NCBI RefSeq assembly: GCF_056746865.1
Contig: NZ_CM163382.1
Reading direction: 5' to 3' (one strand)
DNA length: 64,000 nt
Part shown: positions 48,134-64,000 of the stretch, piece by piece
Layout: each line of letters opens with the position of its first letter
How positions within the stretch are numbered: position 1 is the first letter of the stretch
Translations under genes and position numbers: made by a program
Notes under the pieces: model-generated
The model's input: only the letters and a program-made list of their open reading frames with translations
Database searches by the model: none
What the model was told of the DNA's origin: nothing

Positions 48134-48837
48134 GGTTCCTCCTTGCTGAGCCACGGCCCCTGATTGACGGTGCGTTCCCCAAACAACCATTGCTGACGAT
48201 TTAAAGGAACATCCCGGCGGCGCAATATTTTGCTCGCGACCAGGCCGTCGTGCTCCCCTTCCCACCAGCATTCATCCTGAAGTTTCGGGAGTGCGATTTT
48301 CAGGTCGTGGAAATGCTCCTGATACTGGTGATATGCGTTACGTAAAACATCAGACGCGTTGCCTTCAAGCAGTAACGGCGCAAGTGGTAATGCCAGCGGA
48401 TGACTTTTTCGCCCCAGATAAAGCGGAAAAACTGGATGGCGTAAACCGCCCTGCAACTGTTCGAGGCTGTAAGGCGCATCGGCTGTTGTTGCCACCGCCA
48501 CCATCCACCAGGCGTCGGTGTAGTAGTCGCGCCGGGAGATAATCGCGCTCAGAAGATCAGGGTCGCTCAACTCTTCGCGACGGCTGAAATAACGCGCTTT
48601 ACGCACCTCTTTTGGCATCTGGATTGTGTGATAATCCCGTGCCCAGCGCGGGTTACGGCTGGCGCAAACCACCAGTGAATAGTGGCGGTTAAACACGTTT
48701 AATCGTTCGGTATCATCACGCCGAATCCCTACCCCGGCAGCCAGCAGCCCCAGCAATGCTGAGCGCGAAGGCAGTTCATGGGTATGACGCACTTCGCCCG
48801 CTCCAAACAAACATTTCTCAACGTCTACTGAAGTCCA
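48115..48837 (-). pseudogene. cas5e: cas5e (casD) lacking its 5-prime end
   Basis: frame reads ...HELPSRSALLGLLAAGVGIRRDD (Cas5 glycine-rich motif) but hits a stop at 48838-48840 with no ATG; upstream is AT-rich island DNA. Confidence 0.65.
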
Positions 48838-48969
48838 TCAAATCCACGAATATCAAGCCTTTCAGCCATTTTCATAGCTTATTAACGTCTACTCACAACT
48901 ACCAGAATCTACACACAGAAGTGTATAGTAATGCGTATAGGACAAAATTTATTTTTTGGAGCTATACAC

Positions 48970-50184
48970 ATGCTGCTTTCAGACCTTGCTATCAGGCGCG
49001 CGAAGCCGAAAGAAAAGGCTTATACACTCAATGACGGTAACGGGCTTTCGTTACTCATTGAGCCGAACGGCTCGAAAGGGTGGCGACTACGTTACAGATT
49101 TGCAGGAAAGCCCAAAATGTTGTCGTTGGGCGTGTACCCTGATGTGTCTCTGTCTGATGCCAGAGCGGCAAGGGATGAGGCTAAAAGGCTTCTTGCTGGT
49201 GGTATAAATCCAAGTGAGGCCAGAAAAGCTCAAAAGCGAGAACAGGCGAGCAAATTTGGCAATACTTTTGAGGGTATCGCTCGCGAATGGTATGAAAAGC
49301 GGATCGACAGGTGGTCATCGTCATACGCCGAGGAAATGATCGAGACGTTTGAAAAAGACGTTTTTCCGTACATTGGCGGCAGGCCGATCGCAGAAATTAA
49401 GCCAATGGAGTTGCTTGCGGTTCTCTCCCGTCTTAATGACCGTGGGGCGACCGAAAAATTGCGTAAGGTTCGCCAGCGATGCGGCGAGGTGTTCCGGTAC
49501 GCAATCATCACCGGACGCGCTGAATATAACCCCGCACCAGATCTGGCAAGCGCATTTGCTCCACACAAAAAAGAGCATTATGCCTATTTGAAGGCCGACG
49601 AACTGCCGGAATTTTTCCGCGTTCTTAATACGTACACCGGAAGCCAGATCGTCAAGCTGGGTATGCGATTATTGATTCTGACAGGGCTCCGGCCAGGGGA
49701 ATTACGACAGGCAGAATGGCAGGAGATCGATTTTGATAATCGTTTGTGGGAAGTGCCTAAAGAACGAATGAAGATGCGCCGTCCTCATTGTGTGCCGCTT
49801 TCAGAACAGGCGATCGCTATTCTGGAACAGTTAAAACACATGACGGGGCAGTATCAGTTTATTTTCCCTGGTCGAATCCAGCACAGTAAGCCGATGAGTG
49901 AAATGGCGATGAACGTGCTTATTCGTCGTATTGGCTATTCTGGGCGCGTTACTGGTCATGGGTTCCGGCACACGATGAGCACGATTTTACATGAGCAGGG
50001 CTATAACACCGCGTGGATAGAAACGCAGCTTGCACACGTTGATAAGAACTCAATTCGTGGCACGTACAATCATGCGCAATATCTGGACGGGCGGCGCGAG
50101 ATGCTCCAGTGGTACGCCGACTATATGGACTCACTGGAACAGGGCGGCAACGTGGTGCATGGCAAGTTCGGAAAATGTGGATGA
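48970..50184 (+). CDS. int: tyrosine recombinase, P4/CP4-57-type integrase
   Basis: 404 aa from MLLSDLAIRRAK; N-terminal arm-binding-like domain; C-terminal catalytic GHGFRHT and RGTYNHAQY. Confidence 0.9.
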   Translation: MLLSDLAIRRAKPKEKAYTLNDGNGLSLLIEPNGSKGWRLRYRFAGKPKMLSLGVYPDVSLSDARAARDEAKRLLAGGINPSEARKAQKREQASKFGNTFEGIAREWYEKRIDRWSSSYAEEMIETFEKDVFPYIGGRPIAEIKPMELLAVLSRLNDRGATEKLRKVRQRCGEVFRYAIITGRAEYNPAPDLASAFAPHKKEHYAYLKADELPEFFRVLNTYTGSQIVKLGMRLLILTGLRPGELRQAEWQEIDFDNRLWEVPKERMKMRRPHCVPLSEQAIAILEQLKHMTGQYQFIFPGRIQHSKPMSEMAMNVLIRRIGYSGRVTGHGFRHTMSTILHEQGYNTAWIETQLAHVDKNSIRGTYNHAQYLDGRREMLQWYADYMDSLEQGGNVVHGKFGKCG

Positions 50185-54266: not shown

Positions 54267-54569
54267 ATGAAGAAGATTAAATTTACTGGCTTAAATGCCA
54301 GCGGACAGACTCACCCGAAAATCAGGATCGGGGATATTTTCCGGGATAAATATGGTGACAGCGTGGTTATTAATTCCGTGTATGAACGGCACATTACATA
54401 CCGCCGCGCAGGGTACGACTATGACTGTGTGATGCCCGTTCATCAGTTCCGGCGTGATTTTTCACTGGTATGTGCAGCACCACGCAGTAAGCCCACCAGT
54501 AAAGAGAAAGCACGGGCAAATATTCAGGTAATAAAGAACATGATTAACGCATTCAGGGGCAAGAAATGA
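54267..54569 (+). CDS. hypothetical protein
   Basis: 100-aa ORF; stop overlaps start of the 708-aa gene. Confidence 0.5.
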   Translation: MKKIKFTGLNASGQTHPKIRIGDIFRDKYGDSVVINSVYERHITYRRAGYDYDCVMPVHQFRRDFSLVCAAPRSKPTSKEKARANIQVIKNMINAFRGKK

Positions 54570-56692
54570 AACGCGCACCGAATTTAAAGCACCAGCCGAA
54601 AGACAAAATGACGGAGGTGATTATCTTTGCGGGTAGTGATGCCTGGGCACATGCGAAAGAGTGGAGCGAATGGGCCGGAAAGCATATTGCGGCAGATGAT
54701 ACACATCCAGTTATTCTTGGACCGGAACAACTGGCGAGTCTGGCAGACACGCAAATCATCGACAAAGGGCGCTATTACGTGCGCGTTTATCGTGCTGGTG
54801 AAATATCAGAGCAGCACCTTACACAGATAGCGACACTGCTTGCAGTGGCGGGTGTGAAGGAGGCGCGTTGCTACCGCAGCTTTGTTGATCAGCAGCCGGA
54901 GGACTGGACACCGCGCATGGCTGGACTGAAGGATGATGCGGAACGCGGTAACAGTCTGGTGATCAACCTTCCGGCGAAGACAAATTTCACCGGAAATTAT
55001 GATGACGAATTAAAGCCTCGTGTTGAAAGTCGCGTCGATGGTGTTTTCTGGGTAACGCCCAAAGTGGACAAGCAGTCAGGCGAAATTATCCGGCCTGAGA
55101 CGTGGTTATGTTCTCCGCTTGAACTACTGGGAACAGGAACAATCGGCAAAGAGCATTACCGCGTGATGCGCTGGAAAAAACCAGCAAACCATGAGGTCAT
55201 TACAATGGCGGTCCCGTGCGGAGGCATTGGTGACCGTGACGGCTGGCGGTTGCTGAAAGACCACGGCCTTAACGTGACGACCAACGGCAAATACAGGGCT
55301 ATCTTGGCTGACTGGATGCAGTTAAGCGGAAACCATGAGGAATGGCAGTTAAGCACAACAACGGGGTGGCATTTTGGTGCGTACATCATGCCGGATGGTT
55401 CGATCATCGGTGAATCAGAGAAACCCATCCTGTTTACCGGAAAAACTGCCGCTGTTAATGGCTATTCCGTGGCGGGAACAGCGGAGGGCTGGCGCGATAC
55501 CGTGGCACGGCTGGCTGGTGGTAATCCGTCCATGATGCTGGGTGTGGCGGTATCGCTATCTGCACCATTAATCGGGCTGGTGGGTGCTGACGGCTTCGGG
55601 GTTCATCTTTTTGAGCAATCATCAGCAGGTAAAACCACCACACAGAACATTGCATCAAGTTTATGGGGAGAGCCGGACGCGCAACGGCTGACCTGGTACG
55701 GAACGGCGTTAGGTATCGCCAACGAGGCCGAAGCACATAATGACGGGCTGTTACCCCTGGATGAAATAGGCCAGGCCGGAAACGCACGGGAGGTGTCCAC
55801 GTCAGCCTATACGCTGTTTAACGGTTCCGGGAAATTACAGGGGGCGAAGGACGGCGGCAACAGGGAGATAAAACACTGGCGTACGGTGGCAATCAGCACC
55901 GGAGAAATGGACGTTGAAACATTCCTCAAAACGGAAGGGATAAAAATTAAAGCGGGACAGCTTGTCCGTCTGCTTAACGTACCGATGGAAAAGGCCTCGC
56001 AGTTTCACGAATACAGCACCGGAAAGGCGCACGCAGACGCGTTAAAAGATGCCTGGACAGAAAATCACGGGGCGGCAGGTCGTGAGTGGGTTAAATGGCT
56101 GGCAGGCCACCAGCAGGAGGCAAAGGACGCGGTAAGGGCATGTCGCGAGCGGTGGCGCAACCTGATACCGGAGAGCTACGGCGAGCAGGTTCACCGTGTG
56201 GGGGAAAGATTCGCCGTACTGGAGGCCGCGCTTGTGCTTTCCGGTCATGTTACAGGCTGGGATGTTCAGGCGTGCCGTGATGCAGTTCAGCATAACTTTA
56301 ATGCCTGGGTGAAGGAATTCGGCACGGGCAACAGGGAATTTAAACAGATGGTTGAACAGGCTGAGGCGTTTTTGTCGTCGTTCGGGTTCAGTCGATACCT
56401 TCCCTATCCAAACAGCGACGAGCGTGATTTACCGATTAAAGACCTTGCCGGATACAGAAAGGGGAGTATCAGAAACGAAGATGACGAGTTCCGTTTTTAC
56501 ACGTTCCCGCATGTGTTTGAGGGTGAGATAGCACAGGGATTTAATCCGTCTCACTTTGCCCGCGCGTTGAGTGCAGCCGGAATGCTGGAAGCGGGAGGCG
56601 ACCGCCGTTACAAGAAAAAGGCGCTCGGCAGGATTGGCGGGAAGCAACATATTTTTTACGTGCTGATGTTCCAGCCTGAAGCAGAAGATTAA
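54566..56692 (+). CDS. putative replication initiator (primase/helicase-like P-loop protein)
   Basis: 708 aa; Walker-A-like FEQSSAGKTT; directly upstream of iteron cluster and SSB gene. Confidence 0.65.
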   Translation: MKRAPNLKHQPKDKMTEVIIFAGSDAWAHAKEWSEWAGKHIAADDTHPVILGPEQLASLADTQIIDKGRYYVRVYRAGEISEQHLTQIATLLAVAGVKEARCYRSFVDQQPEDWTPRMAGLKDDAERGNSLVINLPAKTNFTGNYDDELKPRVESRVDGVFWVTPKVDKQSGEIIRPETWLCSPLELLGTGTIGKEHYRVMRWKKPANHEVITMAVPCGGIGDRDGWRLLKDHGLNVTTNGKYRAILADWMQLSGNHEEWQLSTTTGWHFGAYIMPDGSIIGESEKPILFTGKTAAVNGYSVAGTAEGWRDTVARLAGGNPSMMLGVAVSLSAPLIGLVGADGFGVHLFEQSSAGKTTTQNIASSLWGEPDAQRLTWYGTALGIANEAEAHNDGLLPLDEIGQAGNAREVSTSAYTLFNGSGKLQGAKDGGNREIKHWRTVAISTGEMDVETFLKTEGIKIKAGQLVRLLNVPMEKASQFHEYSTGKAHADALKDAWTENHGAAGREWVKWLAGHQQEAKDAVRACRERWRNLIPESYGEQVHRVGERFAVLEAALVLSGHVTGWDVQACRDAVQHNFNAWVKEFGTGNREFKQMVEQAEAFLSSFGFSRYLPYPNSDERDLPIKDLAGYRKGSIRNEDDEFRFYTFPHVFEGEIAQGFNPSHFARALSAAGMLEAGGDRRYKKKALGRIGGKQHIFYVLMFQPEAED

Positions 56693-56902: not shown

Positions 56903-57328
56903 ATGACGGCGCAAATATCAGCTTACGGGCGGCTGGTGGCTGACCCGCAGTTAAAGACCACCAGCAAGGGCACACAAATGGCGATGGCGAGTATGGCGGT
57001 CCCCCTTCCATGCAATCAGACAGATGACGGAACGGCGACGATGTGGTTATCCGTCCTGGCGTTTGGCAGACAGGCTGACGCACTGGCAAAACACCACAAA
57101 GGCGAACTGGTGAGCGTGGCCGGTAACATGCAGGTGAGCTGGTGGACGGGCCAGAACGGCGAAACGAGGCAGGGATGGCAGGTTATCGCAGACAGCGTAA
57201 TCAGTGCGCGAACGGCGCGACCGGGCGGCAAAAAAGGCCAGCAGGGGCAGGCTACTGATGCACTGAACAGGGCAAAGCAACAGACAGGCCAGCACGATGA
57301 TCCGTACGGGGACGGGATACCGTTTTAA
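56903..57328 (+). CDS. ssb: single-stranded DNA-binding protein (SSB-like)
   Basis: 141 aa; OB-fold-like N-terminus, Gly/Gln-rich linker, C-terminal acidic tail DDPYGDGIPF. Confidence 0.7.
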   Translation: MTAQISAYGRLVADPQLKTTSKGTQMAMASMAVPLPCNQTDDGTATMWLSVLAFGRQADALAKHHKGELVSVAGNMQVSWWTGQNGETRQGWQVIADSVISARTARPGGKKGQQGQATDALNRAKQQTGQHDDPYGDGIPF

Positions 57329-57411
57329 TTCACAACAGCGAACAGAGTAATTACCCAGTGCGCCGTAAAGCCCCGTCCTTCAGGTCGGGGATATAAGGCG
57401 CGGTTTTCCAC

Positions 57412-57828
57412 CTAACTAGGTGTTTGCTGTTGTTCAATGTATTGGCGGATGATGGATATTGGCGCACCTCCGCAGCTACTGGCAAAATAGCTGGGACTCC
57501 ATAAAACGCCTTTGTAGTAATACCTGACTGCAATATCTGGTCGATCTCGTCGCAATAATCTACTCGATACGCCCTTGAGACTGTTCACCAGGGTGGATAT
57601 CGCCAATTTGGGAGGATAGTTAATTAGCAGGTGAACGTGATCTCGTTCTCCATCCATTTCAACCAGTTCAGCTTCAAAATCAGCACATACACTTGAAAAG
57701 TAAGTGCGTAGTTTTTCTATTGCGTCATGGTCAAAAATCTGGCGTCGGTACTTGGTAACAAAGACCAGGTGAACGTGCATCAGGAAGACACAGTGCCTTC
57801 CACGTCGGATATCGGTTTCTTTTTTCAT
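57412..57828 (-). CDS. tnpA: IS200/IS605 Y1 (HUH) transposase TnpA
   Basis: 138 aa from MKKETDIRRG; HUH motif HVHLL and catalytic Tyr region VLWSPSYFASSCGG. Confidence 0.85.
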   Translation of the reverse strand: MKKETDIRRGRHCVFLMHVHLVFVTKYRRQIFDHDAIEKLRTYFSSVCADFEAELVEMDGERDHVHLLINYPPKLAISTLVNSLKGVSSRLLRRDRPDIAVRYYYKGVLWSPSYFASSCGGAPISIIRQYIEQQQTPS

Positions 57829-57850
57829 AGGCCAAAGTATAATTTGGCAT

Positions 57851-59059
57851 ATGAAACGACTACAAGCTTTCAAATTCCAGTTAAGACCAAATGGAAAACA
57901 GGAGCGTGAAATGAGGCGCTTCGCGGGCGCATGTCGTTTCGTTTTCAATCGTGCTCTGGCGCTTCAGAATGAGAATCATGAGGCCGGGAACAAATATATT
58001 TCTTATGCAAAGATGACTTCCTGGCTGGTTGAATGGAAAAATGCTACTGAAACGCAATGGCTTAAAGATTCTCCCTCACAGCCATTGCAGCAGTCACTGA
58101 AAGACCTTGAGCGAGCCTACAAAAATTTCTTTCAGAAGCGTGCCGCTTTTCCCCGATTCAAAAAGCGGGGACAGCATGATGCATTCCGCTATCCGCAGGG
58201 TGTTAAGCTCGATCAGGAAAACAGCCGTATTTTTCTGCCGAAACTGGGCTGGATGCGCTACCGGAACAGCCGTCAGGTCACGGGTGTTGTGAAAAATGTC
58301 ACTGTCAGCCAGTCCTGCGGTAAGTGGTACATCAGTATTCAGACAGAAAGTGAAGTATCAACTCCGGTTCACCCTTCAGCATTAATGGTCGGGCTGGATG
58401 CTGGCGTGGCTAAACTCGCCACGCTGTCAGATGGCACGGTCTTTGAGCCTGTAAACAGTTTTCATAAAAACCAGAAGAAGCTGGCGAGACTTCAGCGCCA
58501 GTTAAGCCGCAAGGTTAAATTCAGCAACAACTGGCAGAAGCAGAAACGCAAAATACAGCGACTGCATTCCCGTATCGCAAATATCCGCAGGGACTACCTT
58601 CACAAAGTCACAACGACCATCAGCAAAAACCACGCAATGATAGTCATTGAGGATTTGAAGGTCAGCAACATGTCAAAGTCAGCCTCGGGTACGGTCAGCC
58701 AGCCGGGGCGCAATGTCCGGGCAAAATCAGGTTTAAACCGTTCGATACTGGATCAGGGCTGGTATGAAATGCGCCGTCAGCTTGAGTACAAGCAGCTCTG
58801 GTGTGGCGGTCAGGTGCTTGCTGTTCCGCCAGCGTACACAAGCCAGCGTTGCGCGTGCTGTGGTCATACAGCGAAAGAAAATCGCCTGTCACAAAGTCAA
58901 TTCAGATGCCAGGTATGTGGATATACAGCGAACGCCGATGTAAACGGCGCTCGTAACATTTTAGCGGCGGGGCACGCCGTTCTTGCCTGTGGAGGGATGG
59001 TGCAGTCAGGCCGCCCGTTGAAGCAGGAACCCACCGAAATGATTCAGGCGACAGCCTGA
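57851..59059 (+). CDS. tnpB: TnpB (OrfB) RuvC-like RNA-guided nuclease
   Basis: 402 aa; N-terminus [17 protein letters not shown]; RuvC region [15 protein letters not shown]; zinc finger [12 protein letters not shown]...CQVCG; [10 protein letters not shown]. Confidence 0.85.
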
Positions 59060-59118
59060 ACGTAGCAGGAATCCACGTCCTTCAGGGCGTGGAGGATGTC
59101 AAATATCAATGCGACGAC
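58900..59118 (+). ncRNA. predicted TnpB omega-RNA (tnpB 3-prime end, right-end hairpin, flanking guide)
   Basis: inferred from IS200/IS605 architecture only; right-end hairpin 59073-59092; guide would be about 16 nt from 59103. Confidence 0.3.
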
Positions 59119-59258: not shown

Positions 59259-59264
59259 GCACAG

Positions 59265-59289
59265 AGCCGGAGCAATCCGGCTTTTTTTT
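59265..59289 (+). terminator. rho-independent terminator
   Basis: agccgga-gcaa-tccggct stem followed by T8. Confidence 0.7.
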
Positions 59290-59389
59290 GGCTGAAATCA
59301 ATCAATCTGTTTTTGTGATAGAAATATATTTATCTACCACTTTTTTCGATCAATAATGTGCATAATTTAGTCATTAAGAGGAAATTGCT

Positions 59390-59596
59390 GTGAATTGTAT
59401 TAACGACCTGAACACAGGCGATGTCAGAGGTGGTTCCGTTCATCTGGATGCACAGACCGTGATGCGCCTTAAGCAGTACAGAATCGACCATGTGAACAAT
59501 CACCCTGATCAGCCATTACCAGGCGTGGCGCAGATTGTCAGACATGCCGTAAACGCCTGGCTTAATCAGAATGGTTTTGCATCGGGGGGTGAGTAA
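59390..59596 (+). CDS. small hypothetical protein, first gene of cargo operon
   Basis: 68 aa; GTG start with RBS aagagg 8 nt upstream; AT-rich promoter-like region upstream. Confidence 0.45.
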   Translation: MNCINDLNTGDVRGGSVHLDAQTVMRLKQYRIDHVNNHPDQPLPGVAQIVRHAVNAWLNQNGFASGGE

Positions 59597-59692
59597 TGAA
59601 TCGCTGGTACAGCATCAAAGCAGAGGGACGCCAATGTTATCTAACTCAGGTTTTATGAATTCTGACTCCCGATTCAAAATAGGAGGTTACTA

Positions 59693-62224
59693 ATGCCAGT
59701 CGTACCAACAGTATCCGGACGTCAGGTTGAGAGCCGTGGAGTTCAGTCAGCAGGCTTGCAGACGTTTTCTCAGCCAGGTATTGGTGATGCTTTTGTTCGG
59801 GCAGGGGCAGAGGCAATTGATGTTTTTGGTCAGGCAAAACAGCGTGCCAATATTGCCTTGATTCAGGAGGCATCCCTTAAACTCAGTCAGATAGGCAGTG
59901 ATCTGCTGAATAATCCTGAAACAGGATTGCTTAACCTGAAAGGGAAAAATGCTATTGGAAAAGGCCATGAGTATACACAGCAGTTTGATGCTCAGATCGA
60001 ACAACTGGCTATGTCGCTGCCGGATGAACAGGCTCGTAATGCTTTCATGCAGCAGGCGCAGCAGCAGCGTATTCAGTTCGCTACGCAGGCCGGGAGGTAC
60101 GAGATAGGGCAAATAAATGCCTACGAAGAAGGCCAGTTTCAGGCGACACTGCTGAATAATGGTAAAAATGCCTCAGCATTATATGGCGACAACGCAGCAT
60201 ACATATTGGCTAATACGCAAACTTTCCAGCAAATTGAGGATTACGGTATTGCGCATGGCTGGAGCGACGAGCAAATCCAGGCCAAGAAAATCGAGTTTAA
60301 AGAAGCAACAGCAAAAGCAACTGCTCAAAATGCTATTGGAGCAAACTATCTTCAGGTAAGACAGCAAAATGGCGAGTTAAGCGATACTGCTGCTGGATCT
60401 CGCCGTGCTGTAGCAGATAGTGGCTCTTCCGATCGTACCCGCGGTATACGCAACAATAACCCCGGCAATCTTGAATACAGCAAAACTAATCCGTGGATTG
60501 GGCAGACTGGTGATGATGGTCGCTTTGCCAAATTCGAAACCCCTGAACACGGTATTCGCGCGCTTGGTCGCAATTTGCTGTCGTATCAGCGTCAGGGTTA
60601 TGACACCATCAGCGAAATAATTAATCGCTGGGCACCGGCCAGTGATGATAATAAAACTGATGCTTATATACGGGCAGTATGTGCTCAGCTCGGTGTAACT
60701 CCTGACCAGCCGCTTGACGCATCAAATCCTGACACACTGAAATCTCTGTGCAAAGCAATTATTCATCATGAGCAAGGCAGTCAGCCGTACAGTGATCAGC
60801 AATTGGCCGCTGGCGTTAGTGCCGCACTGGGGCTTTCTCAGCTACCGACAAAAAATAAACGTTATACCGGTGTAGCCTGGTTCGATGCTTTAAGTGAATC
60901 AGATCAGGCCAGCGTGTTGCGACAGACGGATGCATTAGCCAGACAGCAGCAGGCTGAATATAGAACGATGCTCGAAAGCCGGGTTCGCGATGCAACGGCT
61001 GCGTATATGCGTGGCGTTGAATTTCCTAACCCGCCTGGTGAGGGTGAGTTCATTGCTGCTTATGGTGTCAGAGAAGGAAACCTGCGATATACCGAGTTCA
61101 GAAATTTGCAGATCGCCGGACAGTATATAGGCTCTTTCCGCAACATGCCGACAAGCAGCATTACCGCATATGTTGAGCAATTACGCCCGGATACTGGTGA
61201 GACAGGGGAGGGGTATGCGTCTCGTGCGGAGTTATTCGACCGGGTATCGGCGGCAGCCACGAAGGTAATAACCCAGAGGCAGAATAATCCGTTTAGTGCA
61301 GCGGTGGAAATCGGAGCCTATAAGCCGATCACCAGCAACAACCCTGACGACATCACTGCCGAGGTGGCTAACCGTTTCTCGTCGCAGGAAAGCTTACGCG
61401 CGTTGGGAATTAATGCCCCACTCCTCAACAGTGAAGAGGCGGCTGCGCTGGCACAGCAGGTGCGCGGCACTCAGAACGTTGACCAGACAATTAAACTGTT
61501 GCAGAGCATGGGGGAGAAGCTGCCTGCGCCAGCAATACGGCAGGTGGCATCTGTAATTGCTCCGAACAGTGCGGCAACAGCCTATTCTGCGCTGCTGCTG
61601 GGCACGCCGGATAACCAGTACGACAACACCAGGCCGACGATCCCATATAGTCAGTTCATCGGGTATAAGCCGACGATGAACAAGTACGACGTTGCAAAGG
61701 TTATTCTTTCCGGCGACCAACTACTGAATCCGACGAAGGCCATGAAGAATGCGGGCATAACTCCGGTACAGTTGCCGAGCGAAGATAAGATGAAAGACGC
61801 TTTCGACGAACAGGTAGGTAATGCATTTGCCCGTAACCCGCAGTTACGCCAGATCAGTTATAGCCTTTTCAAAGCCGCTTACGCAGGAATAGCTTATCAA
61901 TCTGGTGATGCCTCTACGGTAAGAACCAGTATGCCTGATACAGACATTGTAGCTGATGCCGTGAAGTATGCTACTGGCGGTATATACAATGGTTTTAATG
62001 GCGGCGACGTTGTAATGCCTTTTGGCATGGATAAATCTACTTTCAAAGATCGCTATACCACATCTGCGAAACAAGCACTGAAAGATGCCGGACTTAACGT
62101 AAATGCAGTGTCAAATTTCACGCCAGTTAATATCGGCAATAACCGGTATCGGCTTGTAAATGGTAGCGGACGCTGGGCAACAGATCCCAGAACCAATAAA
62201 GCTATTGTCGTGAGGGTTGAATAA
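59693..62224 (+). CDS. large hypothetical protein (843 aa), Q/A-rich
   Basis: strong RBS aggagg; conserved-looking central block IRNNNPGNLEYSKTNPWIGQ...FAKFETPEHGIRALGRNLLSYQRQGYDTISEIINRWAP; no P-loop; function unknown. Confidence 0.7.
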   Translation: MPVVPTVSGRQVESRGVQSAGLQTFSQPGIGDAFVRAGAEAIDVFGQAKQRANIALIQEASLKLSQIGSDLLNNPETGLLNLKGKNAIGKGHEYTQQFDAQIEQLAMSLPDEQARNAFMQQAQQQRIQFATQAGRYEIGQINAYEEGQFQATLLNNGKNASALYGDNAAYILANTQTFQQIEDYGIAHGWSDEQIQAKKIEFKEATAKATAQNAIGANYLQVRQQNGELSDTAAGSRRAVADSGSSDRTRGIRNNNPGNLEYSKTNPWIGQTGDDGRFAKFETPEHGIRALGRNLLSYQRQGYDTISEIINRWAPASDDNKTDAYIRAVCAQLGVTPDQPLDASNPDTLKSLCKAIIHHEQGSQPYSDQQLAAGVSAALGLSQLPTKNKRYTGVAWFDALSESDQASVLRQTDALARQQQAEYRTMLESRVRDATAAYMRGVEFPNPPGEGEFIAAYGVREGNLRYTEFRNLQIAGQYIGSFRNMPTSSITAYVEQLRPDTGETGEGYASRAELFDRVSAAATKVITQRQNNPFSAAVEIGAYKPITSNNPDDITAEVANRFSSQESLRALGINAPLLNSEEAAALAQQVRGTQNVDQTIKLLQSMGEKLPAPAIRQVASVIAPNSAATAYSALLLGTPDNQYDNTRPTIPYSQFIGYKPTMNKYDVAKVILSGDQLLNPTKAMKNAGITPVQLPSEDKMKDAFDEQVGNAFARNPQLRQISYSLFKAAYAGIAYQSGDASTVRTSMPDTDIVADAVKYATGGIYNGFNGGDVVMPFGMDKSTFKDRYTTSAKQALKDAGLNVNAVSNFTPVNIGNNRYRLVNGSGRWATDPRTNKAIVVRVE

Positions 62225-64000
62225 TGTCTGATGTTTTTTCTTTGGCTCCAGAAGGTCAGGCATGGATTGACGACAAAACAGTTGCCAACCCAGCAAGGCC
62301 AGAAGACTACGATCCGACTCCCTTCCAGGGTTCAGGTACTGCACTTTTGAGCGGCGTGGCGGAGGGGGCTCTCGGTCTCGCGCAGTCTGCCGTCGGATTC
62401 AGCAAGCGTCTGATTAGCGATCCGGCATTTACCGCAGACGTGGCACCGACAGTTAATATTTTTCGGGAGATGTTCCCTGATGCTGACAAAACACTGAATG
62501 ATACATACGACACGATCGGAAAACAGTTACAGGATGCCCGCAGCTATGTGAAGCCTGATGCAGGCAGCCAGGGAATGGCGGCTGAGGTATTAAATGAGCT
62601 TGGTAAATTTGTTCCTGCAATCGGAACAACTATGTTTGGTGGTCCGCTCATCGGCGCTGCTACAGCCTTCAGTTCTACGTATGAGCAGTCCTATCAGGAT
62701 TTTAAAGGGAAGGGAGTAGACGAGGCTACAGCGCGTAACCTGGCAACGCAGCAGAGCCTTTTCAATGCTGTGGGTATGGCCTTACCCGCTGCCGTCGGCA
62801 CCACACTGGCAACGCGCATTGCCTCAGGTGTGGCAATCAACACCGGATTCGGTGGACTGAACCGTTACTCAGTAGGCGCAACACTGGAGGAAAAAGGCTA
62901 CACGGAGATGGCAAAACAGTATCGGGTATTTGACGGTCAGGCGATGTTAGTCGATGCCGTTTTAGGCGGGGTCTTTGGTGGCGTTCATCACCTGACTACC
63001 CATAATAACCATGATGGTACAGAGTCGAACATTTCTGCAGAAGAAATAAAATCAACTTTTGGTGAACATTATCAGCAATCTCCTGATGGTAACATTGAGT
63101 CAATGGTTCGTGATTTATCTGATTCAGGAGTAATAGAACTTATTAATGAACCAGCAATAAAAAATAGTGATGGAGAAATACTTCTGAATAAAGGTCATGT
63201 GACAGTAGCTTCCGGAAAAGAACCAATAATAAGAATAAATATTAATGGATTAAAAGACCATGAAGAACTGTTAGAAACCCTTCATCACGAGGCGCTTCAT
63301 CTTGAGCAGCGCCATTACCCTGACTGGAAGGCCAGAAAGCTAGCTAATGCTGTACTTAAATCTGCAAACAAGCATTCTGACTATCCTGAATTTGCATATG
63401 GGATGTCACAATATTATGAATATAAGAAAAGGGGTGAGTACCCTGAAACATATCCTGAGTGGTTGTACGCTGAAGAAGTTGCCGCACATGCAGTAAATCC
63501 ATCTCTAAAGACAAGCGTTTCATCATGGGAAAAAATTATTTCAGGTTTTAAAGCCTATATATTCAGATACAGTGGTATTCAGGTTGGAACCGTTACACCT
63601 GAGCAGTTACGGTTACTCGTAAGTATGCGTCTTCGCAATATGAAACTGGAAGCCGCAGTAGAAAAAGTTTTTGGTATCCGGGCGAGGGAAAGAATAAAAC
63701 CAAGCGATATTGATGCAGCCCACATTTTGAATGAGGGGCTTCATTACGATATTGAATCGTCACCAGTGCTTCATACCAGCAATGAGAGCATCAACAGCCA
63801 TGTTGACGCCATGGATGAAGCATACAGGCAACTTAATGATGGTCAGCCTGTAAATGTTGGGGGGATGGCGCGAGGGCTTGATGGTCCATTGCGATCAGAT
63901 ATATCTGATACTTACCAAGAGCAATACCATGAAATACAAAAGGTTTTTGAAGAAAATGGTGTCAGATACGAAACATCATCAGAGCCAATTAGTGAATCGC
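62224..64000 (+). CDS. large hypothetical protein (partial, at least 592 aa), HExxH motif
   Basis: taATG overlap with previous gene; frame open to window end by manual translation; Gly-zipper hydrophobic segments; LHHEALHLE. Confidence 0.65.
   Translation, partial: MSDVFSLAPEGQAWIDDKTVANPARPEDYDPTPFQGSGTALLSGVAEGALGLAQSAVGFSKRLISDPAFTADVAPTVNIFREMFPDADKTLNDTYDTIGKQLQDARSYVKPDAGSQGMAAEVLNELGKFVPAIGTTMFGGPLIGAATAFSSTYEQSYQDFKGKGVDEATARNLATQQSLFNAVGMALPAAVGTTLATRIASGVAINTGFGGLNRYSVGATLEEKGYTEMAKQYRVFDGQAMLVDAVLGGVFGGVHHLTTHNNHDGTESNISAEEIKSTFGEHYQQSPDGNIESMVRDLSDSGVIELINEPAIKNSDGEILLNKGHVTVASGKEPIIRININGLKDHEELLETLHHEALHLEQRHYPDWKARKLANAVLKSANKHSDYPEFAYGMSQYYEYKKRGEYPETYPEWLYAEEVAAHAVNPSLKTSVSSWEKIISGFKAYIFRYSGIQVGTVTPEQLRLLVSMRLRNMKLEAAVEKVFGIRARERIKPSDIDAAHILNEGLHYDIESSPVLHTSNESINSHVDAMDEAYRQLNDGQPVNVGGMARGLDGPLRSDISDTYQEQYHEIQKVFEENGVRYETSSEPISES

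Follow-up and report, generated by a model that had tools for sequence, protein, structure and literature searches.

The DNA analysed here is a 64,000-nucleotide stretch of contig NZ_CM163382.1 (NCBI RefSeq assembly GCF_056746865.1), referred to below as the window. Its last part, from position 59390 to 64000, holds the beginning of a late operon whose large proteins are, on full-length sequence alignment, orthologues of the virion proteins gp15, gp16 and gp17 (tail tube/ejection apparatus) of Salmonella phage epsilon15, a Uetakevirus. The operon lies outside any prophage and forms the final transcription unit of an integrative element of the phage-inducible chromosomal island (PICI) type, which agrees with an earlier, sequence-only reading of this DNA that had taken it for island cargo. 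We propose that the element is a PICI-type satellite of Uetakevirus phages that supplies its own injection proteins, with a probable metallopeptidase module lodged in gp16, to capsids made by a helper; for the chain of steps as a whole, we hold this proposal to be evenly balanced between right and wrong. A reference copy of the island from a near-identical E. coli chromosome (L001), which extends past the end of the window, was used alongside the window copy.

Identity of the late-operon proteins

The first large gene (59693-62224, on the plus strand, as are all window features below unless noted otherwise) encodes the 843-residue gp15 orthologue, of family phrog_992, and is preceded by AGGAGG at 59681-59686, 6 nt ahead of its ATG. 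The second (62224-64000, phrog_1145) encodes the gp16 orthologue, of which the first 592 of 686 residues lie in the window, its frame being open to the window end; its ATG at 62224 shares bases with the gp15 TAA stop (TAATG). In near-identical E. coli chromosomes the full operon comprises genes of 843, 686, 918 and 104 residues with overlapping junctions, followed by a terminator, and the gp17 orthologue is the 918-residue gene, which lies beyond the window end. The sequence-only reading had described a terminator, a 68-residue gene, an 843-residue gene with an aggagg ribosome-binding site and a translationally coupled open gene containing LHHEALHLE, and all of these lie at the coordinates it gave. 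It counted two large genes in the operon; the near-identical genomes show three and a small fourth, and in them the second gene is complete at 686 residues.

All three large proteins have full-length matches in the PHROG collection, to phrog_992 (962 bits, gp15), phrog_1145 (457 bits, gp16) and phrog_684 (981 bits, gp17), and chance falls far short of explaining open reading frames (ORFs) of such lengths that match a family from end to end at 960-980 bits. Searching phage genomes with tblastn led to epsilon15 and its relatives. Pairwise comparison with the annotated epsilon15 genome gave 79% identity over 843 residues for gp15 and 89% over 917 residues for gp17, while two parts of gp16 aligned, residues 1-281 at 83% and residues 480-686 at 74%, the stretch between them showing no similarity. 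Gene order, coupled stop/start junctions and a terminator after the operon are common to the island and epsilon15. The epsilon15 proteins have been placed in the injection apparatus, either as hub and core or as tail tube (PMC12391199), and the podophage injection apparatus in general is discussed in PMC8954989. The earlier guess that the proteins were of the virion internal or ejection type is thereby borne out, and its statement that no family could be assigned no longer holds.

The gp15 orthologue also contains a peptidoglycan-hydrolase domain (60425-60862, residues ~245-390) with an RNNNPGN motif at 60449. This domain matches Gp29 of PDB entry 9vvp (E=2e-40) and the endolysin 7q47 (3e-18), and shares about 60% identity with the N-terminal hydrolase of Kayfunavirus internal virion protein D; the earlier view that these proteins are unlike enzymes fails on this point. 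Its description of a Q/A-rich first protein and of Gly-rich hydrophobic segments in the second was accurate: gp15 is 12.6% A and 8.1% Q, and residues 40-260 of gp16 contain Gly/Ala-rich, moderately hydrophobic segments. Together with the location of the island beside the ETT2 type III secretion locus in some genomes, these gp16 segments could suggest toxins aimed at the host, secreted or acting on membranes, such as effectors tied to ETT2. We give this reading almost no credence, as the same operon is also found at yicC-dinD, far from ETT2, and full-length orthology to phage virion proteins accounts for all of its features.

Pfam yielded no match for gp15, gp16, the 68-residue protein or any member of alignment A1; NCBIfam yielded none for the operon proteins, and the PADLOC-DB 2.0 defence models none for them or for ten further proteins of the island. 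It is because these collections miss the families that the genes are annotated as hypothetical, and some 900 database contigs labelled 'hypothetical protein' can now be named.

A foreign module in the centre of gp16

The gap in similarity between island and epsilon15 gp16 corresponds to an island-specific central module (62994-63692, residues ~258-489) with a GC content of 0.40 against 0.47-0.56 in its flanks; it resembles no phage gp16. In 65 gp16 sequences from IMG/VR, phages and prophage loci, the centre consists of a 73-residue Pro-rich linker or of this linker plus a coiled-coil region of about 110 residues. Three versions of the centre (73, ~185 and 238 residues) are thus seen; the 238-residue version, with its HExxH motif, occurs only in the E. 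coli island, and none of the sampled phage gp16 sequences contains HExxH. On this comparison the module is foreign to gp16, the disordered central linker having been replaced by an insert of about 230 residues.

Within the module, the HExxH motif is HEALH (63286-63300, residues 355-359, within LHHEALHLE), and a Glu pair, E417-E418 (63472-63477), lies in a downstream helix and is a candidate third zinc ligand. A tblastn search with the module picked up, by weak matches, giant virion proteins in phages of Ralstonia, Klebsiella, Ochrobactrum and Serratia; the matched proteins, from five phage genera, are annotated 'DarB-like antirestriction' or 'PLxRFG protein'. Full-segment alignment with these polyvalent-protein modules covers about 190 residues at 23-28% identity, and 30 further modules from IMG/VR are 22-28% identical to that of the island. 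Throughout 35 modules, HExxH (H67, E68, H71 in module numbering), an EE pair (E129, E130) 58-66 residues later and the pattern G..Q.G..TP.Q are invariant, although the invariance of HExxH and EE is in part a matter of construction, since the scan was seeded on these two motifs.

AlphaFold2 modelling from the module alignment gave a model with a pLDDT (local confidence score) of 83 and a pTM (global fold score) of 0.77, comprising a helix, short strands, a long HExxH helix and a later EE helix; the N-terminal part (helix 3-12 and short strands), where a zincin-like fold would have a helix and a three-stranded sheet ahead of the HExxH helix, reached a pLDDT of only 49-63. A model built from six aligned sequences could not be used, its pLDDT being 47. 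Iyer et al. (2017, PMC5512222) describe a zincin-like metallopeptidase (MPTase) as the commonest domain of injected polyvalent proteins, where it is predicted to process the carrier protein or attack host proteins, both roles being predictions only. The module is probably a zincin-like metallopeptidase because the predicted topology of HExxH helix and Glu helix matches that description. A Foldseek search with the pLDDT 83 model found no match, and neither did profile and solved-structure searches for a peptidase, the Pfam models of the polyvalent-protein MPTase included. Word-indexed protein searches with the module and with its Ralstonia homologue gave no useful match, and an exhaustive search of representative sequences with the module recovered only a 74-residue fragment of gp16 itself.

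Seen against these results, the zinc-metallopeptidase site suggested from sequence is plausible by its invariant HExxH and EE, but profile and structure matches to a peptidase did not follow; likewise, the structural modelling it pointed to gave a zincin-like topology, but the structure search gave no match. It had also anticipated that homology to phage structural proteins with a non-conserved HExxH would count against the site: phage gp16 proteins do lack the motif, yet it is conserved in the inserted domain's own family.

A non-catalytic role should be weighed here, in which the module is a folded spacer or protein-binding domain in a length-tolerant gp16 centre and HExxH is structural. The centre does tolerate versions of 73, ~185 and 238 residues, no profile or solved structure confirms a peptidase, and PMC5512222 itself offers only predicted roles. 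Against this stand the H, E, H and EE positions, invariant (partly by construction) in 35 sequences at 22-28% identity to the island module, and a predicted topology that matches zincins, and we regard a non-catalytic module as unlikely.

As a separate observation, a 127-residue partial protein labelled E. coli (P0002) matches part of the polyvalent protein of Ralstonia phage GP4 at 97% identity, and is probably a contaminant or a mislabelled contig.

Junction scars and cassette exchange

The late operon begins with a 68-residue gene (59390-59596, phrog_4934) that starts with GTG after AAGAGGAAA and is the conserved first gene of late operons in this PICI family. It follows a conserved leader (59276-59389), about 89% identical to that of a sister PICI, which overlaps an intrinsic terminator (59263-59284, a stem-loop followed by a T-run) ending the upstream unit. 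The 68-residue ORF is a real gene, matching phrog_4934 at E=2e-31 and being intact with mostly silent changes in the sister island; in some 174 other E. coli genomes the gene and the preceding ~110 bp show 87-89% identity. Its product has the sequence pattern of a possible ribbon-helix-helix DNA binder. A tblastn search of phage genomes with this protein returned 0 matches, and comparison led us to reject two proposed relatives, epsilon15 gp3 and a 75-residue ORF of an Enterobacter island described below.

In the smaller sister island (L003 7572-17260) the leader gene precedes two others, a ClpP-protease/major-capsid fusion and a DUF1441 gene; in this record the annotation pipeline places a minus-strand ORF where the conserved plus-strand 68-residue gene lies. 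The window operon retains traces of both parents between the 68-residue gene and gp15. A first scar (59596-59627) corresponds to the first ~30 nt (MNRWY...) of the sister PICI prohead-protease/major-capsid gene, and a second (59625-59692) to the last ~69 nt of Uetakevirus gp14 plus the gp15 ribosome-binding site, a segment that phiV10-like prophages share at their gp14|gp15 junctions with 97-98% identity. At the other end, phage homology stops just past the operon terminator. From these scars and homology limits it follows that the capsid and packaging genes of a PICI gave way to a phage segment running from gp15 to the terminator.

Two further cassettes are found on the same backbone, with the same 68-residue gene, junction and architecture. 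In isolate F719 the cassette encodes an 873-residue SLT protein followed by proteins of 565, 849 and 186 residues (L136 13068-20500), and in ETEC1749 the proteins are of 837, 600, 824 and 98 residues (L137 13068-20352). Cassettes are exchanged at the late-operon slot, and at least three versions share one backbone. Conservation between cassette types is seen in the N-terminal ~190-235 residues of the leading cassette protein, at 65-69% identity among the island cassettes and 37-45% to the phiV10-type protein, and this stretch may be a docking part for common virion components.

The fourth gene of the epsilon15-type cassette lies 3′ of gp17 (L001 27741-28055) and encodes a small, 104-residue protein with two hydrophobic segments. 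Homologues 65-84% identical follow gp17 in some Uetakevirus contigs, and other island copies have different small genes in this position.

Distribution and maintenance of the operon

The HExxH-bearing gp16 gene is present in 36 of 5426 complete E. coli genomes, as a single copy in each and at 99.4% identity or more. All 36 carriers have the match under three features annotated as coding sequences (7.3 kb of ORFs), none of them named a pseudogene; in carrier TUM9803 an IS4-like element splits the gp17 match. The number of contigs with an identical 686-residue gp16 is 901, and a closely similar variant is listed for E. albertii. Between the lineages at two integration sites, gp16 shows 15 synonymous and 0 non-synonymous differences and gp17 is almost identical. 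The gp15 genes of these lineages are mosaic, with 200 differences and a ratio of non-synonymous to synonymous rates (dN/dS) of 0.19: two patches (L001 21291-21590 and 22491-22790, window ~60590-60889 and ~61790-62089) are 78-82% identical and the remainder 93-100%, a pattern that suggests recombination with other gp15 alleles.

A diverged island, assigned to Enterobacter from cluster names, carries AlpA, Bro-N and Phage_ASH genes, a 916-residue primase (61% identical), a single-stranded DNA-binding protein (SSB) gene and the 75-residue ORF, followed by gp15, gp16 and gp17; it is absent from the complete E. coli genomes. Compared with about 50 sampled phage copies, island gp15 is at most 81% identical for E. 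coli and 74.5% for Enterobacter, and the two island proteins are no closer to each other than to phage copies. A recent origin of the trio by copying from a resident prophage was considered and rejected, as carriers hold no second epsilon15-type gp17 and the island copies are outlying. In the Enterobacter island (L080-L085) a HicA/HicB-like pair and an Abi_2 protein are encoded downstream of the cassette, as accessory cargo of the toxin-antitoxin and abortive-infection kinds, and these are not in the E. coli island.

The operon might also be inert, three unused phage genes left behind when a PICI and a prophage happened to recombine illegitimately. The junction scars indicate just such an origin, the PerC gene is frameshifted in all inspected copies, the window copy has suffered an insertion and a deletion, and a blastn comparison with Uetakevirus loci found no packaging determinant. 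An inert remnant nevertheless fits poorly with the upkeep of the operon in its carriers, the other cassettes and the Enterobacter lineage. The 7.3 kb of ORFs are annotated as coding sequences in 36 of 36 carriers, gp16 has accumulated 15 synonymous and 0 non-synonymous changes and is identical on 901 contigs, and the arrangement recurs at two integration sites, as three cassettes in one slot and in a diverged Enterobacter lineage of the same layout. On this evidence we consider a remnant highly improbable.

A presumed Uetakevirus helper and the proposed mechanism

Our proposal starts from the identity of the proteins, the satellite backbone, the exchange of capsid genes for the cassette, the purifying selection on the operon, its recurrence and the presence of helper-type prophages in the same genomes. 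Of the 5426 E. coli genomes, 534 contain Uetakevirus-type tail genes (gp12-gp14). A query limited to the phage-derived junction and the 5′ end of gp15 (59626-59900) detected a second gp14|gp15-junction locus in 24 of the 36 carriers and in 432 of 5390 other genomes (8%; odds ratio 23, Fisher p=4e-18, a statistic that takes no account of strain relatedness). In the one strain in which it was inspected, this second locus is a complete Uetakevirus prophage with terminase, portal, capsid, gp11-gp14 and lysis genes, a cassette of 915-residue, 1129-residue DUF919 and 283-residue proteins, and a K1 endosialidase tailspike. Since the cassette of this co-resident prophage differs, the island would supply particles with a different injection set. 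Strain 2022E04-002 is one carrier of both the island and a Uetakevirus prophage. Another 17 E. coli genomes, none of them island carriers, contain bona fide epsilon15-type prophages.

Helper-dependent expression, incorporation into particles, DNA delivery and peptidase action would then be connected as follows. On induction of a Uetakevirus helper, or infection by one, the island would excise, replicate by means of its own primase and express the late operon, and its ejection proteins would be assembled into helper-made capsids holding island DNA. The island is about half the length of the 39-40 kb helper genome, so that a dimer would fill the head, which is consistent with headful packaging. 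In the next cell, gp15-gp17 would open the wall and form a channel for entry of the island DNA, and the metallopeptidase module of gp16 would travel with the DNA and might cut gp16 itself, or a recipient or helper protein. More tentatively, and as a possibility we would not yet favour, the island may represent a so far unrecognised class of ejectosome-encoding PICIs that use Uetakevirus capsid, motor and tailspikes together with an exchangeable injection cassette of their own, armed with an injected metallopeptidase, so that the loaded particles could enter and establish themselves in cells that block the helper, such as helper lysogens, or that destroy incoming DNA.

Several points weigh against the proposal. 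Besides the disregard of strain relatedness in the co-occurrence statistic and the inspection of the second locus in a single strain, none of the 36 carriers holds a second epsilon15-type gp17, and the fit of the island proteins to the portal and tail of the examined helper is assumed, given its different cassette. A sigma-70 consensus promoter was sought in the leader (59276-59389) and none was found. A blastn comparison (word size 9) of the island with three loci, including the Uetakevirus terS region, detected no similarity outside the cassette and no terS, pac or cos determinant by which the island would be packaged. Finally, the genetics of Guichard, from 2013, reportedly place epsilon15 gp15 and gp17 in the tail tube and not in the internal core, and the term ejectosome is for that reason partly an analogy.

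As the main alternative, the same data are compatible with a role in interference or defence, in which look-alike ejection proteins would co-assemble into phage virions and cause poor injection or protease damage, protecting the population and cutting helper yield with or without transfer of the island. Satellites commonly hamper their helpers, and PICIs can carry assembly-interference systems. Island gp15 and gp16 stand clearly apart from all phage copies, the cassette of the co-resident prophage is another one, the HExxH module is confined to the island, and cassette turnover on a fixed backbone is what an arms race predicts. However, neither the operon nor the other island proteins matched a PADLOC model, and purifying selection along the whole of gp16, in a complete and ordered trio with its terminator, suits working parts better than poisons. 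Interference, which does not exclude self-supplied injection, appears to us rather unlikely as the explanation of the operon.

Relation to known systems

The island and epsilon15 share the gp15-gp17 orthologues, their order, their overlapping junctions and the end terminator, but the island trio comes without gp11-gp14, portal, capsid, terminase, tailspike and lysis genes, only the last 69 nt of gp14 being left, and the centre of its gp16 is an HExxH module found in no sampled phage gp16. Described PICIs of E. coli have an integrase, AlpA, primase-replicase layout and carry a cargo activator of the LEE (locus of enterocyte effacement), and by definition PICIs are without phage structural genes and span about 12-15 kb (PMC6092414). 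The present island resembles Gram-negative PICIs of the EcCICFT073 type in its integrase/AlpA/primase-replicase order, its PerC-type gene and a late operon that begins with the 68-residue gene, as in the sister island; its short attachment (att) repeats, seen at two sites, may likewise mark dedicated sites. With 19-20 kb and three virion-protein genes it departs from that definition on two counts, and its presumed helper is a podophage and not a lambdoid siphophage.

Capsid-forming PICIs (cf-PICIs) are alike in that the satellite makes part of the virion and the helper gives the rest, but what they encode is the capsid, portal, terminase and connectors, while their tails are stolen. The present island would do nearly the opposite, taking capsid, packaging and tailspike and giving DNA-delivery proteins. 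By gene content it is neither a cf-PICI nor P4-like: annotation and a PHROG scan revealed no capsid, portal, terminase, tail, head-tail connector or lysis genes on the island, and no Sid/Psu/Delta genes, for which dedicated profiles were not run.

The polyvalent-protein MPTase (PMC5512222) resembles the island module in its HExxH helix and later Glu helix, and perhaps in a small sheet, and its carrier proteins are packaged and injected; the island module sits in a 686-residue ejection protein and not in a protein of several thousand residues. The T7 ejectosome (gp14/gp15/gp16) is likewise a virion protein set, one member of which has a wall-hydrolase domain, located after a gp14-family gene and thought to form a trans-envelope channel, but there is no detectable sequence similarity to T7 gp15 or gp16, and the island has three large proteins against two.

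Known satellites reshape capsids, or build them in the case of cf-PICIs, and redirect packaging, and in the literature searched we found none reported to encode virion DNA-delivery proteins; full-text searches on satellites and PICIs in connection with ejection, internal virion or injection proteins, an ejectosome or Uetakevirus turned up no such element. If the proposal is true, it adds a new strategy to satellite biology, identifies satellites of temperate podophages in E. coli and Enterobacter, and makes the ejection cassette a swappable unit. The centre of gp16 would then be a natural 'cargo slot' for an enzyme injected with the DNA, of relevance to anti-defence effectors and to the engineering of delivery particles.

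Backbone, borders and neighbouring features of the island

The island backbone comprises genes for a tyrosine integrase (48931-50184 in the window), an AlpA-like regulator, Ant/Bro antirepressors, Icd-like and DUF4222 proteins, a DUF927 primase/replicase (54566-56692, phrog_1139), SSB (56903-57328), ProQ/FinO and PerC. Islands are 19.2-19.9 kb long between att repeats of 11-12 bp and occupy two chromosomal sites with different integrases, one at tRNA-Gly beside ETT2 (L001 and the window copy) and the other at yicC-dinD.

The left border of the window copy (48794-48806) is formed by the last ~13 nt of tRNA-Gly (TTCGCCCGCTCCA, the att core), and similarity to L001 begins at 48792. The DNA to the left of this border is unrelated to the actS-tRNA-Gly flank of L001, and ARAGORN found no tRNA gene across the whole window; the window copy may lie in a tandem array or at a rearranged site.

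An IS200/IS605-type insertion (57355-59102, with tnpA at 57412-57948 on the minus strand and tnpB at 57851-59059 on the plus strand) lies between SSB and the late operon and stands in place of about 1 kb of other copies, namely ProQ/FinO, a 138-residue gene and part of PerC. The window late operon is unaffected, with 99.9% identity to L001. The 138-residue protein deleted here (L001 19309-19725) resembles Ant at its N-terminus and weakly matches the 'terminase' family phrog_1711 (E=2e-10); it could be a factor in DNA binding or packaging. All island copies inspected (L001 19734-19959, L008, L009, L136 and L137) have a PerC-family regulator gene annotated with a frameshift.

Past the window end, L001 28757-28912 contains three direct GTTTGCGGGTTAT-type repeats followed by inverted copies (ATAACCCG...). 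In sequence these look like the iterons of a replication origin, and they are located downstream of the ejection cassette, not beside the primase gene.

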